Notes under the pieces: generated by a model
The model's database searches: none
Seen by the model: the letters and a program-made list of their open reading frames with translations, nothing else
What the model was told of the DNA's origin: nothing
Assembly (NCBI GenBank): GCA_003345595.1
Contig: PRDI01000126.1
Span: 1 to 17,162 of the forward strand
DNA from: Candidatus Thorarchaeota archaeon
Lineage (GTDB): Archaea; Asgardarchaeota; Thorarchaeia; Thorarchaeales; Thorarchaeaceae
DNA length: 17,162 nt
Direction of reading: 5' to 3'
Translations under genes and position numbers: made by a program
Shown: piece by piece, positions 2,627 to 14,814 of the stretch
Numbering within the stretch: position 1 is the first letter of the stretch
How the letters are laid out: each line of letters opens with the position of its first letter

Positions 2627-3382
2627 ATGGTACCCAAGAGAGCAATCGTGCGCCCTCCAAGTCGCAGCTTCTCACGTTGCATCTCCTCTCACCCGTTGCG
2701 GAACACTGCGAGTGCGAAGAAAGCCAAGGGGCAACACTCTGCGTACTGCACCACACTCGGGGAGCTCGGTCTTGAGCTGCTCACAATGAAAGCTGAAGAC
2801 GCATACCCCGACTCATGCTTCGTTGAGGACACCGCTGTCGTACACAACAACAAGGCCATTATCGCAAGAATGGCGGCTAAGAGCAGACAAGGAGAAGAGG
2901 ACACAGTTGAGTCACTTCTTGGTCAGTATATTCCTGTTCGCAGGATAAGTGAGCCTGGAACTCTGGAAGGGGGAGATGTGATCCATCTTCCCGACAGACT
3001 CATCAGCGGCGTTTCACAACGGACGAATGTCGAGGGGGTCTTCCAGATGAGTGACTGGCTTGAGGTCCAAGTCGATGCAGTCAGAGACCCCTACATTGTG
3101 CACCTCAAGAGCCATGTCACCTACTTAAGCGGCAAGACGATAGTCTGCAGGAAGAGCTATGCGGACCACCCTGCACTTGAAGGGTACGAGTTGCTGATTG
3201 TTGATGACAATGAGGCATACGCGGCCAACACGCTTACAATAGGCAATGTCGTAATCATGCCCGCAGGATTCGAGCGGACTGCAGAGACGGTGAGTGAAGC
3301 AGGTTACGAGGTTATATGTCTGGACGTCAGCGAGTTCGAGAAATGTGAGGGGGCGCTGACATGTCTTTCAATCCTCTTCTAG
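2627..3382 (+). CDS. ddaH: N(G),N(G)-dimethylarginine dimethylaminohydrolase (DDAH)-family amidinohydrolase
   Basis: Pentein-family motifs YPDSCFVED, LEGGDV, HLKS and EFEKCEGALTCLS (catalytic Cys/His present). The 251-aa length is typical of DDAH. Confidence 0.85.
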   Translation: MVPKRAIVRPPSRSFSRCISSHPLRNTASAKKAKGQHSAYCTTLGELGLELLTMKAEDAYPDSCFVEDTAVVHNNKAIIARMAAKSRQGEEDTVESLLGQYIPVRRISEPGTLEGGDVIHLPDRLISGVSQRTNVEGVFQMSDWLEVQVDAVRDPYIVHLKSHVTYLSGKTIVCRKSYADHPALEGYELLIVDDNEAYAANTLTIGNVVIMPAGFERTAETVSEAGYEVICLDVSEFEKCEGALTCLSILF

Positions 3383-3630: not shown

Positions 3631-3654
3631 TCACCGACAATATGCTTTCGGTGA
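3631..3654. promoter_or_regulatory. Inverted repeat covering the putative SD of the repeat-peptide gene
   Basis: TCACCGA (3631-3637)-N10-TCGGTGA (3648-3654). The right arm contains the GGTGA SD, 10 nt before the ATG at 3665. Confidence 0.45.
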
Positions 3655-3664
3655 AAAACACACC

Positions 3665-3799
3665 ATGAATACGACACAAGCATTCCCTGCAGACCCGCCA
3701 AACGAACCTTGGCAGTGTCTGTTCCCAGCTGATCCCCCGAATGAGCCATGGCAGTGTCTGTTTCCGGCAGACCCTCCGAATGAGCCCTGGCTCTTCTAG
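3665..3799 (+). CDS. 44-aa tandem-repeat peptide MNTTQA-(FPADPPNEPW-QCL)2-FPADPPNEPW-LF
   Basis: Three identical decapeptides encoded by DNA copies that differ only at third codon positions. GGTGA SD at 3650-3654. An alternative in-frame TTG start at 3608 gives 63 aa. Confidence 0.8.
   Translation: MNTTQAFPADPPNEPWQCLFPADPPNEPWQCLFPADPPNEPWLF
3683..3790 (+). repeat. 39-bp-period coding tandem repeat (about 2.8 copies)
   Basis: Units at 3683-3721, 3722-3760 and 3761-3790. Over the 10 core codons the pairwise differences are 8, 6 and 7 nt, all synonymous. Confidence 0.95.
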
Positions 3800-3821
3800 A
3801 GGAGCAACTAGGCTGTACACA

Positions 3822-3865
3822 GGCAGAGTGTCCTACCGCCTTTTGGGGTGGGAATACACTCTGCC
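3822..3865 (+). other. Strong GC-rich stem-loop 22 nt after the repeat-peptide stop (3' UTR structure, terminator or attenuator candidate)
   Basis: GGCAGAGTGT (3822-3831) pairs perfectly with ACACTCTGCC (3856-3865). Inner pairing CCUACC/GGUGGG (one G-U) and a CC-UUUU-GG apex. Confidence 0.6.
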
Positions 3866-4052
3866 CCCATCTACAGGTTAGGGCGGCACTGATCTTATGA
3901 CTCCCGGCCGTCGACCTTGGATAAGTGGACGAAATCAAAGATGTAGGTCTGTGAAGTTCGGAAATCCCCGGACCCGGCCCAGAAACCCGACGACTGACCT
4001 TCCCAGAAACCAAAGCAGGAACCAGTGACCGGGTCGTACCGGGAGTGAATCT

Positions 4053-4389: not shown

Positions 4390-4577
4390 GAGAGACAGAT
4401 GCAGAACGGCAGCCGCAACTGCGAACTCAGGACAGTGATTCCCGGAGAAACGGTCATCGCAGAAAGGAGTAGGACCACGTTCATAAGAGAAGAAGGCTTT
4501 CAGGTCTGGTCTGTCTGAACTCGACACGTTTCTTCATTTGCAGAACGGTGATGTCGGGTTTTCGGGAGCTGACAGCC

Positions 4578-5861
4578 ATGTCATTCGTGGGAAAGGATTC
4601 AAAGAGGAGCATTGTCAGGAACTTTGGCTCTCATGTTTCGTCGGGCAAGGTGGACTTCTATACCGCAATCGACCTTGACTTTGTGATAGGCAAGAGAAGA
4701 GGCTCGTGGATGTATGACGTGTCTGGCAAGACCAAGCTTCTCAACTGCCACTGCAACGGAGGAGTGTTCAACCTTGGACACCGTAATCCAGAATTGATCC
4801 GTGTGTTGACGGATGCACTGAAAGAACTCGACATTGGAAATCACCACCTCATCAGTGAACAAAGAGCCAAGCTTGGCAAGAAGCTTGCCAAGGTGAATCC
4901 GCCAGGTCTGAGTCGAGTCGTATTTGGCGTGAGCGGCGGAGAAGCAGTTGACTTCGCCATCAAGCTTGCGCGAGCTCAGACAAGACGACAGAAGATTATC
5001 TATGCGTCTGGAGGATATCACGGGCATACGGGACTTGCACTTGCGGCGGGAGCGGATCACTTCAAGAAACCGTTCGAGCCTCTGGCTCCTGGTTTTGTCG
5101 AAGTGCCATTTGGTGACACTGAAACGCTTTCGAAGGTGATTGACGAGCAGACTGCCGCAGTGCTATTCGAAACAATCCCTGCGACCCTCGGCATGCCCAT
5201 TCCCCCTGATGGATTCTACAAGGAAGTCAGGGAATCATGTGACAAGAAGGGCGCACTCTTGATACTCGATGAGATACAAACAGGATTGGGGAGGACTGGG
5301 AAACTGTGGGCGTTCCAGCACTACGGGATCACGCCTGACATCTTCACGATTGGCAAGGGACTCTCTGGAGGCCTCTATCCGATGTCAGCGACCTGTTATC
5401 GAGATGAGCTGGACTCATTCATGCGTGAGAACCCGTTCATACACGTGTCAACATTCGGGGGAGCCGAGCTTGGCTGTCCTGTGGCGGAGAGAGTCCTCGA
5501 CATCTCGTCTTCGAGAGCATTTCTGGGCCGTGTGAACACCTTGGCAGCTAGAGTTGAGAATGGACTTGACGTACTCAGTCAGCAGTACTCAGATATCCTA
5601 ACGGAGGTGCGACAGCTCGGCCTGTTCATCGGTCTCAAGATGAATGACCAAGGATACGGGCCGCTCATGAGCATAGCCTGCTACAACAGCGGACTGTTCG
5701 CAGTATATGCTGACAATGACAAATCGGTGCTGCAGTTTCTGCCGCCATTAACCATCAGTGATGCGGAAACATCATTCATGTTCAGGAGCCTCAACAGGGC
5801 GTATTCGTGGGCAAGGAACAACCCCAAGTATCTCGAACTTGCAAGAGCATTGGTAGCATAG
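4578..5861 (+). CDS. Class-III PLP aminotransferase (putrescine/acetylornithine aminotransferase-like)
   Basis: Motifs FNLGHRNP, SGGEAVD, GYHG, DEIQTGLGRTG, PLP-lysine in DIFTIGKGLSGG, HVSTFGG. ATG 4578 is preferred (GGGAG upstream) over the GTG at 4548. Confidence 0.9.
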   Translation: MSFVGKDSKRSIVRNFGSHVSSGKVDFYTAIDLDFVIGKRRGSWMYDVSGKTKLLNCHCNGGVFNLGHRNPELIRVLTDALKELDIGNHHLISEQRAKLGKKLAKVNPPGLSRVVFGVSGGEAVDFAIKLARAQTRRQKIIYASGGYHGHTGLALAAGADHFKKPFEPLAPGFVEVPFGDTETLSKVIDEQTAAVLFETIPATLGMPIPPDGFYKEVRESCDKKGALLILDEIQTGLGRTGKLWAFQHYGITPDIFTIGKGLSGGLYPMSATCYRDELDSFMRENPFIHVSTFGGAELGCPVAERVLDISSSRAFLGRVNTLAARVENGLDVLSQQYSDILTEVRQLGLFIGLKMNDQGYGPLMSIACYNSGLFAVYADNDKSVLQFLPPLTISDAETSFMFRSLNRAYSWARNNPKYLELARALVA

Positions 5862-5873
5862 GAGGTACAATGA

Positions 5874-6845
5874 GTGACGATAACTGTTGACGACAATCTG
5901 CTGAAGACCTTTGAAGAGCAACTCGATCCATCAAGACCTGAAGAGTCACCGATGCCTGCGAAGGTGCTAGGCTACGGCGAAATCAGCACGGTGTTCGAAA
6001 TCCTGCAAGAGGATCAATCGGAAATCGCGTTCAAGAGAATGCCTCTATTCGACACGGTTGCACAGGTCGAGAGCTACGAGAGCCTATATGAGAGATACAA
6101 TGAGCAGCTCGTGAAAATCGGACTACAGCTTCCCGAGTATGGAGCGACGCATATTGTCACGGATAGCGGGAGGATTGTCCTGTACCTTTACCAGGAGAAG
6201 CAAATCGCAGACGCCATCGGCAACAAGGTGATTCACAAGGTTTCAAATGATGAATGCTTCCTACTTGTCCGCCACGTGTTCAGGGAACTGAATAAGGTCT
6301 GGAAGTTCAACAACAAACACAGAAACAAGCTCGAGCTGGCTATCGATGGACAGGTGTCCAACTGGTCAGTGCAGGAAATGAACCCAAACAACCCCAGCAT
6401 AGGCCGGGACACGAGACTGGAGTACCTCGACACAAGCACACCCCTGATGAGGGAGAATGGAAAGGAATTGCTTGATGCGGTCCTCTTCCTCAAACCGACC
6501 CCTCTTGTGATGAGATGGGTACTCAAGAGGTTCTACCTGCAAGACATACTCGACAGATATTACGACCTACGCCGCGTGTGCCTTGATCTGGTTGCGAATT
6601 TCCTGAAGGAACAGCGAAGCGACCTGGTGCCTGGACTCATCGACGTCACCAACGAGTTCTTCAGAAACGAAGCCGTCATAGAGCATCTGGCTCCCCTTAC
6701 TCCTGGGGAGGTCAAGAGCTACTACGACAATGATGCCTCGACATGGAGACTCTACCTCAGACTCAGGAGAATGCACAGATTCATGAGCCGCAAGGTACTG
6801 AGGAGATACTACCCCTATATTCTGCCCGGGAGGATCGTAAGGTAG
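5874..6845 (+). CDS. DUF6206-like protein with protein-kinase-like motifs
   Basis: LGYGEISTV (Gly loop), AFKR (beta-3 Lys), IDGQVSNW (D-x4-N loop) and YLDTS (DFG-like position). GGAGGT SD overlaps the aminotransferase stop. Family name is from recall. Confidence 0.7.
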   Translation: MTITVDDNLLKTFEEQLDPSRPEESPMPAKVLGYGEISTVFEILQEDQSEIAFKRMPLFDTVAQVESYESLYERYNEQLVKIGLQLPEYGATHIVTDSGRIVLYLYQEKQIADAIGNKVIHKVSNDECFLLVRHVFRELNKVWKFNNKHRNKLELAIDGQVSNWSVQEMNPNNPSIGRDTRLEYLDTSTPLMRENGKELLDAVLFLKPTPLVMRWVLKRFYLQDILDRYYDLRRVCLDLVANFLKEQRSDLVPGLIDVTNEFFRNEAVIEHLAPLTPGEVKSYYDNDASTWRLYLRLRRMHRFMSRKVLRRYYPYILPGRIVR

Positions 6846-9656: not shown

Positions 9657-10085
9657 ATGACTGACTATGAGCTTCTGCAAAGATTGGCTTACCTGCAGAA
9701 GACGCTGAAGAAGCTGAAGGAACTCGGAGCCAGTGCTTTCGACGAATTCAATAGCGACTTCAGGGTGAGCGACGCGGCACTCTACAATCTTGAGGTCGCC
9801 ACAGAAACAGTGGTAGACTTGGCCAATCGGGTGATAACAAAGAGGGGTGGATCCCATCCGAGAAACCGAACCGAGACTTTTCGTACCCTCGGTACTCTTG
9901 GAGTAATTGACAAACCGGTAGAAATGGGTCTGCTCAAGCTTGCCTTGCTGAGGAATACGCGTGCGAACTCCTATGTCGATGTGAACCTGCAGGAACTATA
10001 CATTTTGCTTCGGAATGAACTGCCAATAATCAGCAAGGCCGTTAAGATTCTTAGAAAAGAACTTGGGATGGAGGAGAAGCGCTAG
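9657..10085 (+). CDS. HEPN/DUF86 (HepT-like) domain protein with variant catalytic motif
   Basis: DAALYNLEVATETVVDLA, P...ETFRTLGTLGVI and LRNTRANSYVDVN...LY match the DUF86 layout. The RX4H motif reads RNTRAN. Confidence 0.8.
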   Translation: MTDYELLQRLAYLQKTLKKLKELGASAFDEFNSDFRVSDAALYNLEVATETVVDLANRVITKRGGSHPRNRTETFRTLGTLGVIDKPVEMGLLKLALLRNTRANSYVDVNLQELYILLRNELPIISKAVKILRKELGMEEKR

Positions 10086-13567: not shown

Positions 13568-13680
13568 ACTGAGTTCTCTTGTCTAATAACAATAATGGCT
13601 CGCTGGGCGACAGGCCAAACGCATATGAGCGTATTCTCCCAATAACCCAACAGTGTTGCGACAATCGAGGTGATTCTGCC

Positions 13681-14814
13681 GTGATAACCTGCAGCGCATG
13701 CGGCAAGGCCAACCAGCCGACACGTAAGTTCTGTATCCGTTGTGGGGCCTCTCTGCTTATGAAAGTCCAAGAACCAAAGCAAAAGGAAACATCTCCTGCT
13801 CCGGAATCGAAGGCTGCGCCTGCTGCAGCTCCTGTGAGGAAGACGAACAGACCGGACTCGACTGTGCCGCCTGAGAAGCTAAGCGTCACCACAGGAGATA
13901 GCTGGGTGCGTCCCAGCTCTGTCGAGCGCGATCGTTTCAGGACTGGCGAACGGCACACCGGGAAGACCGAGCTTGAGAAGGCCCGAGAAGCTTTTGCGAT
14001 TGCTGACAAATCAGATGTCGAAACCCGCATGCTCAGAGCAAGCGAGGTCAGACAGCTCATGGCAGAAGCTTCGACTGCTCCTCAGACGCCAGCGGCTCCT
14101 CCACCAAGGGCTGCACCAATGACAGAGCCGCCTAGGCCAGCTCCACCCAGACCGGCTAGGCCCATCGAATCGGCGCCTCCTGCAAGTGCACAGAAACCTC
14201 CGGGTGTGACAGCAGAAGAACCAGCAGCAACGCCTAGGCCGCCTTCTGCCATGCCCCCGGGGCCAAGACCAACGATAAGCAGGAATGGGCTATCCGAGGA
14301 CGAATCTGAACTCGAAACCATACGAGAGCCTGTTTTCAAACCTGCTCCACCGGCGCCACTTCGTCCACCAGCACCAGCAGCCCCGGCGGCGATACCACCA
14401 CAGCGGCCATCTCCGTCACGGGTGCCGCAAGAAGCAGTCACTTCGCGCTCAAGTTACTCTGGCGACAGCAGAATCAGAGACGTAGAATCCGACATTACAC
14501 ATTTCAACCAGCAGCTTCAGCAGTTCGAGTCCGAACTGGAGACCACTCGCTCGCGTCTGGATGCGGAAGTCGAACGGTTCCGCGCCGCCGCGGAGTCCAA
14601 GAAGACTAAGGCCGATAATCTAGAAGACGATCTTCGCCGTGCGAAGAACGAGTGGAGCGAAACTGACAAGGATTACCGCAAGGCAAAGAGCCGCAGAGAC
14701 AAGGAAGTTGAGGATGCAGGGAAACGCATCGAGGACCAGAAGAAACGCGTCAAGAACGCCGAAGCTGCCAGAGAAAAGCGGATTCGTGAGATCGAGAAGG
14801 AAAAGCAGGTCTGA
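13681..14814 (+). CDS. Zinc-ribbon / proline-rich / coiled-coil protein
   Basis: GAGGTGA SD (13667-13673) before GTG 13681. CSACGKANQPTRKFCIRCG zinc ribbon, long Pro/Ala-rich linker, and a highly charged helical C-terminus of about 115 aa. Confidence 0.85.
   Translation: MITCSACGKANQPTRKFCIRCGASLLMKVQEPKQKETSPAPESKAAPAAAPVRKTNRPDSTVPPEKLSVTTGDSWVRPSSVERDRFRTGERHTGKTELEKAREAFAIADKSDVETRMLRASEVRQLMAEASTAPQTPAAPPPRAAPMTEPPRPAPPRPARPIESAPPASAQKPPGVTAEEPAATPRPPSAMPPGPRPTISRNGLSEDESELETIREPVFKPAPPAPLRPPAPAAPAAIPPQRPSPSRVPQEAVTSRSSYSGDSRIRDVESDITHFNQQLQQFESELETTRSRLDAEVERFRAAAESKKTKADNLEDDLRRAKNEWSETDKDYRKAKSRRDKEVEDAGKRIEDQKKRVKNAEAAREKRIREIEKEKQV

Follow-up and report, generated by a model that had tools for sequence, protein, structure and literature searches.

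The window, a stretch of 17,162 nucleotides of Candidatus Thorarchaeota DNA, contains a real gene for a short peptide of an undescribed family encoded beside large regulator-like proteins, and on the sequence evidence the peptide is most likely a signal for those proteins or a partner of them. We call the large protein X, and we give a probability of about one half to the reading that the peptide is a lineage-specific partner or ligand of X, which the window copy would supply in trans. Defined peptide-receptor signalling pairs are well known in Firmicutes and eukaryotes. Our literature searches found no such pair described in Asgard archaea and nothing on these peptides themselves, most subscription papers lying outside the search.

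The features of the window that bear on the gene are these:

2627 to 3382, plus strand: dimethylargininase/arginine-deiminase-family gene upstream of the micro-gene (Pfam ADI/DDAH; NCBIfam match below cut-off)
3650 to 3654, plus strand: Shine-Dalgarno sequence GGTGA, 10 nt before the ATG, matching the 3' end of the 16S rRNA of the same genome
3665 to 3799, plus strand: micro-gene of 44 codons, with a 6-residue head, three cores, two QCL linkers, an LF tail and a TAG stop
3683 to 3712, plus strand: core 1, FPADPPNEPW by frame translation
3722 to 3751, plus strand: core 2, the same peptide by frame translation
3761 to 3790, plus strand: core 3, again the same peptide, followed by LF and the stop as in the one-core copy on contig C50
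3822 to 3865, plus strand: strong RNA hairpin, separated from the stop by 22 nt, an inverted repeat that could act as a 3' stabiliser or in a terminator-like way
4548 to 6845, plus strand: genes for a class III aminotransferase and a DUF6206 protein, situated about 750 nt 3' of the micro-gene; neither is the partner X

The micro-gene is absent from the existing annotation and has no match in Pfam, NCBIfam or Rfam; TRF detects a 39-nt array (x2.8) within it. The earlier note had reported three identical cores whose DNA differs only at synonymous positions, and our recomputation agrees: there are eight differences between cores 1 and 2, seven between 1 and 3 and six between 2 and 3, all of them silent third-position changes. 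Nine columns vary among the three cores, and each is a third position; given a synonymous-site fraction of 0.21, nine changes would all be silent with a chance probability of about 8e-7. When the DNA is read in the other two plus-strand frames or in the three minus-strand frames, the copies differ in residues or run into stops.

Comparison with relatives points the same way. The ortholog in genome G001 is 94% identical over the open reading frame, compared with 69 to 74% in the flanking gaps, and differs by seven synonymous changes and one non-synonymous change (residue 2). Further orthologs lie at loci L003/L026 and L157 to L159. Start, Shine-Dalgarno sequence and stop are conserved among the copies, GGTGA itself being kept in the C50, G001 and metagenome copies. 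The RNA of positions 3800 to 3890 folds at -42.4 kcal/mol (z -3.9; equalled by 0 of 200 shuffles), and a stem related to the window hairpin also stands 3' of the C50, G001 and L156 copies. Because the core changes are silent, the Shine-Dalgarno sequence matches the rRNA, a hairpin follows and conservation in G001 is higher over the reading frame than in the flanking gaps, we conclude, from sequence comparison, that the micro-gene is coding and under selection. The selection on the peptide that had been proposed is borne out. An alternative in-frame start at TTG 3608 was rejected, since a stop codon in the same frame immediately precedes the ATG of G001.

The order of parts that had been described (head, core, QCL, core, QCL, core, LF) is correct, but the head is not a real leader and the linkers call for a correction: the two QCL copies are the same DNA, and QCL is not kept elsewhere, the linker at L156 being QAF.

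In a six-frame scan of the source genome, G000, one further instance of the identical core came to light on contig C50, in a one-core open reading frame with the same Shine-Dalgarno sequence, the same LF-stop and a related hairpin. This frame lies directly upstream of a gene of about 670 codons, X, the only X gene detected in G000. Window and C50 copies share the core exactly and differ in head, linkers and four to seven silent sites. Metagenome contigs carry the X locus with two cores (linker QAF) and the window-type locus with two or three (linker QCL), and one metagenome sample holds both loci with two cores each. Since metagenome and genome copies have one, two or three cores, copy number varies at both loci while the core stays fixed; this fits the variable copy number with a conserved core that the earlier note had told its readers to look for, and in the wider family the number reaches four or more. 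A masked genome-wide scan of G000 gave no convincing member beyond the C50 copy, the mask having hidden the known copies on C126 and C45. The search for X gave nothing in G001, an 85% complete genome that has the three-core copy.

The window copy is placed differently from its counterpart on C50. Its neighbours are arginine and polyamine genes, and the window holds no remnant of X. Genome G003 has the same dimethylargininase-like gene without the block of peptide and aminotransferase, and the aminotransferase gave no match at E<1e-60 in G002, G003, G006 or G021, so the polyamine neighbourhood is local; it is limited to this species group and is not conserved. The roughly 750 nt between micro-gene and aminotransferase are poorly conserved. 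We conclude that the window copy is an extra, stand-alone (orphan) copy of a Thorarchaeota peptide gene without an adjoining X. As had been noted from the sequence, there is no signal peptide and no recognisable maturase or protease in the window; the C50 locus has no known maturase or protease either. Action of the peptide in trans looks likely; the window copy lacks X and has the same core as the copy at the C50 X.

Three other observations concern the window. The segment 3665 to 6845 (peptide, aminotransferase, DUF6206) has the appearance of an insertion that separates the dimethylargininase-like gene from the arginine decarboxylase gene, and is missing there in G003 (L151). A HepT-like (HEPN) RNase gene lies at 9657 to 10085, with no nucleotidyltransferase partner evident just upstream among open reading frames of at least 60 aa. 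A 411-aa protein encoded at 13579 to 14814 has a zinc-ribbon-like motif (CxxC-CxxC) in its N-terminal part; its middle is long and rich in Pro and Ala, and its end is charged and resembles a coiled coil.

X led to the family as a whole. Among 86 genomes of the archaeal family (Thorarchaeota), 75 gave an X match; a profile search matched 41 of 43 family genomes versus a single weak match in 157 other genomes of the phylum, and a close X homolog also comes from Candidatus Thorarchaeota. Just upstream of 47 of the 67 X genes examined lie a hairpin and an adjacent Pro-rich micro-ORF with one to four or more cores ending x-P-[W/F], with micro-ORFs read at 27 of 30 first loci and at 20 of 40 more distant ones. 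Small open reading frames ending near EP[W/F] occur on the sense strand of 38 of 70 X-upstream regions and on the antisense strand of none. Among the 47 peptides, E precedes the P in 37, 40 end in W, and in 37 the stop follows P-[W/F] immediately. Family members span 11 to about 60 aa, and most have one core, 11 to 15 residues and no leader.

Selection in this family acts on the core. Counted over 13 multi-core peptides, the codon changes between neighbouring cores are 48 synonymous and 2 non-synonymous, and the linkers vary from locus to locus and from species to species and have no common motif. Cores are fixed within a lineage and strongly divergent between lineages, even at an orthologous dnaJ-linked locus (L170). 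The layout of gene, hairpin and X, with peptide and X co-directional, is family-wide. The 90 nt that follow the peptide stop are more stably folded than shuffled controls (median z -2.4; z below -2 in 29 of 48), and their sequence is not conserved.

Several single loci add to this picture. At L104 (G029, contig C100) the repeat array runs across a stretch of Ns left by the assembly, so assemblies may collapse long arrays or count too few repeats in them. At L111 and L115 (G368 and G372) three-core peptides end in a last core of different sequence that is still P-W-ending, which suggests mixed-core precursors, and in G007 (L083) two core types alternate. About 600 nt upstream of X, L057, L069, L071 and L075 share a sequence resembling a reverse-complemented tRNA end; ARAGORN reports no tRNA there, and the element may contain an intron or be something else. 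Viral matches to the peptide pattern sat within long frames or were not in frame, and chance seems to explain them.

Peptide and X do not always occur together. No peptide lies next to 20 of the 67 X genes, and a minimum of eight changes in peptide presence or absence is required on a tree of the 67 X proteins (a quick IQ-TREE search with some long branches, on which only label changes were counted). In G002 and G003, X lacks the peptide inside a clade that has it. In G006 a peptide and hairpin on contig C3 (L177) precede a truncated X (the first 118 or so profile positions), and the intact X, on contig C42, has no peptide.

Following a looser match to the peptide motif, we found a second type of locus, single copy, in 74 of 86 family genomes and restricted to the family in the sample searched. 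It has two tandem-Lrp-like genes (about 365 and 470 aa) with weak HTH_24/AsnC matches below cut-off. On the divergent side are an open reading frame of about 48 aa that ends P-F at most loci, one or two of 11 to 14 aa ending x-P-[W/F], one of 84 aa and an MFS gene. At least one peptide ending x-P-[W/F] was present at 29 of the 30 loci of this type that were read. The source genome has two separate such frames at its copy:

C45, 1 to 5313 (L129): second locus of G000, with two separate 14-aa P-W-ending open reading frames at 3124 to 3168 and 3310 to 3354

Taking X loci and second loci together, the same peptide ending accompanies two kinds of tandem-Lrp protein in two layouts. An MFS transporter is present only in the second locus type, and no exporter stands at the X loci.

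We modelled X to examine what kind of protein the peptide accompanies. The model (pLDDT 87.8, pTM 0.84) shows a beta domain, a helical part (residues 160 to 330) and tandem Lrp/AsnC-like domains, the C-terminal half being alpha/beta with about ten strands in the Lrp arrangement of RAM-type ferredoxin-like domains. X itself has no sequence match in Pfam, NCBIfam or the PDB. Residues 328 to 664 match the tandem-AsnC-fold protein NirDL (PDB 4czc; Foldseek E 3e-5; Z 10.9; rmsd 5.5 over 266 aligned residues) at 9% identity; single Lrp/AsnC regulators (2dbb, 2ia0, 8q90) give Z of about 5, and identity to known AsnC-fold proteins is 9 to 12%. Structural neighbours in the Atlas are archaeal HTH_24/AsnC proteins. 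X thus has the fold of NirDL and the Lrp/AsnC regulators in its C-terminal half, and differs from them in having about 330 extra N-terminal residues that include the beta domain. Modelled alone (pLDDT 88.7), that domain gave a best Z of 4.5, no Foldseek match at E<=0.001 and Atlas TM of at most 0.36, figures that do not imply a new fold. When profiles were compared, X showed no significant match to the second-locus protein of 473 aa.

Residues 497 to 550 have a wHTH-like secondary structure in the model without a Pfam match. Because none of 31 X members has a Pfam HTH match and the putative recognition helix is among the least conserved parts (0.44, compared with 0.78 for the C-terminal motif), X may not bind DNA. 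The known ligands of the fold are amino acids or siroheme, not peptides. NirDL is a siroheme decarboxylase, an enzyme derived from the AsnC family (PMC4835899), so the fold cannot decide whether X is a regulator or an enzyme.

Taken together, these results lead us to favour the peptide as a lineage-specific partner or ligand of X, because, within a lineage and even at unlinked loci, the core is held constant by selection over its full length while lineages differ, and because peptide and X are separable. A pattern fixed within and variable between lineages is expected of a co-evolving partner and not of something read by the conserved ribosome. A short, stabilised transcript would yield the peptide in excess. 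X would recognise it by the core as a whole; the terminal P-[W/F] would be the anchor common to all lineages, and the residues before it would form a code particular to each. Core number could tune dose or avidity, and the three-core window copy would supply the same core to X in trans. Two steps are weaker: that X is a transcription regulator, and that the peptide serves as a signal, perhaps one released from the cell. Some results sit less easily with the partner reading. The 20 of 67 X genes without an adjacent peptide are one, and a loose EPW-stop pattern was no commoner than its control in five genomes. Others are the enzyme as best structural match of X (9% identity), the lack of a Pfam HTH match, the immediate stop after P-[W/F] in 37 of 47 peptides (which also fits termination pausing), the lack of a signal peptide in the micro-gene product and of an exporter at X loci, and the failure to find X in G001.

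A larger extension of the partner reading is that Thorarchaeota have a peptide communication or feedback system with parts unrelated to bacterial RRNPP, in which lineage-specific Pro-rich peptides ending in P-[W/F], dosed by core number and stand-alone genes, would be exported by the MFS transporter and read by tandem Lrp/AsnC-fold receptors; we put this forward as a tentative possibility only.

It is also conceivable, although unlikely, that the peptide acts in cis as a leader or ribosome-arrest peptide, with a pause on the Pro-rich x-P-W, possibly dependent on aIF5A or polyamines, governing read-through past the hairpin to the gene that follows it (X mostly, the aminotransferase operon in the window). 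The co-directional layout of peptide, hairpin and gene fits this, as do the terminal P-[W/F] as the sole family-wide invariant (with its direct stop in most members), the T-rich tails on about half of the hairpins (20 of 43) and the arginine and polyamine genes beside the window copy. The nearest known cases are bacterial arrest leaders and the uCC of AZIN1, an established PPW pausing peptide involved in eIF5A and polyamine sensing (PMC8705083), which offers a precedent: it too is a short upstream open reading frame ending Pro-Trp, there is a Pro-Pro in the core of the window peptide, and polyamine-related genes are nearby. However, the family motif is mostly E-P-W/F and not P-P-W, and the family lies upstream of X or of the 84-aa frame, X being the next gene in nearly all loci. 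Nor did we find the mutually exclusive RNA structures of an attenuator: pairing of the hairpin 5' arm with the reading frame was no better than in shuffles (median z +0.3), and an alternative as stable as the hairpin was seen in 2 of 43 cases by a simple duplex test. The hairpin starts at a varying 1 to 58 nt from the peptide stop, and in the second locus type a small stem leaves the next Shine-Dalgarno sequence uncovered. Further against the arrest reading, the whole core is selected within a lineage yet changes between lineages, the polyamine neighbourhood is confined to this species group and the aminotransferase is far off across poorly conserved DNA.

We consider it quite unlikely that the peptide is a RiPP-like precursor whose cores are modified by X or the paired tandem-Lrp proteins (in the manner of NirDL/AhbAB) or by an unlinked maturase in trans. 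The layout of precursor, hairpin and large gene recalls RiPP operons. Multi-core architecture under purifying selection is consistent with such a role, X has invariant polar residues (E153, H275, H399, N449, R643 and D654), and its best structural match is an enzyme (PMC4835899). The genome does encode an unlinked, RiPP-maturase-like 473-aa PqqD + radical SAM + SPASM protein (G000, contig C39, 69339 to 70760, minus strand), with no obvious precursor among nearby small open reading frames, and RimK-like genes on other contigs, unlinked to the peptide. Against this reading, most members are single-core, leaderless and 11 to 15 residues long, linkers share no motif, the core lacks S, T, K and C, neither the window nor the C50 locus has a known maturase, protease or ABC exporter, and no YcaO turned up in the 83% complete G000. 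The earlier note had pointed to co-occurring peptidases, radical SAM, YcaO or ATP-grasp genes as companions to look for; the family is tied instead to tandem Lrp/AsnC-like proteins.

An intracellular, stoichiometric partner without signalling (a small subunit, a chaperone or an antitoxin-like inhibitor of X or another protein) would show the same genomic coupling and selection pattern as the favoured partner or ligand, and the missing export signal and the acidic, Pro-rich sequence typical of linear binding motifs would suit it. Yet X is intact without an adjacent peptide at 20 of 67 loci, and the second locus type has a divergent layout that includes regulator-like genes and an MFS transporter; this explanation strikes us as improbable. 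A non-coding repeat, a fragment of a larger repeat protein or a CreT-like mini-ORF that sequesters tRNA can be dismissed: an unrelated 143-codon minus-strand frame does overlap the gene (it was itself rejected on the frame evidence), and mini-ORF plus stem-loop resembles CreT superficially, but the changes are silent in the plus frame only, start, Shine-Dalgarno sequence and stop are conserved, all four Pro codons are used (4/3/3/2) with none rare in the genome, which rejects tRNA sequestration, and Rfam gives no match.

If the peptide does bind X, the Lrp/AsnC fold would gain a peptide-reading role, whereas the cis alternative would add an arrest peptide to those known and the enzyme alternative a novel enzyme acting on peptides, in either case from archaea. 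The dozens of natural, lineage-specific peptide/partner pairs make binding and specificity testable without culturing the organism. Whichever reading holds, a gene set spanning the archaeal family is missing from annotations.

How does the family compare with known peptide systems? The earlier note had likened the gene to multi-core RiPP and pheromone precursors and called it an undescribed archaeal peptide. That the peptide is undescribed is supported, while membership of those classes or close likeness to them is not supported. Tandem identical cores, short linkers, silent divergence and variable copy number are shared with multi-core RiPPs and yeast alpha-factor, but the family has no leader or signal peptide, no cleavage motif, no linked maturase and usually one core. 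In the window copy, five residues after Met precede core 1, and the linkers are motif-free. Cyanobactins of the PatE type have core C/S/T heterocyclisation, AYD-type recognition sites and PatA/G proteases; this core has no C, S or T, and no such recognition sites were seen. Graspetide cores have T/S/K donors and D/E acceptors and come with a linked ATP-grasp ligase; this core has D and E and no T, S or K, and the RimK-like genes of the genome are on other contigs. The 44-mer also has no K or R, and so no dibasic Kex2 sites, and no hydrophobic N-terminus of the dikaritin or alpha-factor kind.

The closest parallel is with the RopB/SIP leaderless peptides (LCPs) of the RRNPPA systems of Firmicutes, which are hydrophobic, 8 to 10 aa long and bind a C-terminal TPR domain, and about half of whose receptors have an adjacent sORF (PMC10518010). 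Both are very short, leaderless, lineage-specific peptide genes with their own ribosome-binding site beside a cytoplasmic regulator-like gene; the adjacent sORF is found here at 70% of X genes (47 of 67) and at 29 of 30 second loci, the window copy not being X-adjacent, and the divergent layout with a transporter recurs in the second locus type. In contrast, the peptides here are acidic, Pro-rich, 11 to about 60 aa long, often multi-core and co-directional with X (the window peptide has 44 aa, GRAVY -0.73 and pI of about 4), and the C-terminal half of X is tandem Lrp/AsnC-like, without homology to the TPR receptors, no Pfam TPR match having been found in 31 X members. We therefore view the Thorarchaeota family as working most like the leaderless peptide/RopB pairs of Firmicutes, without being a member of that group, and its signalling role as putative.
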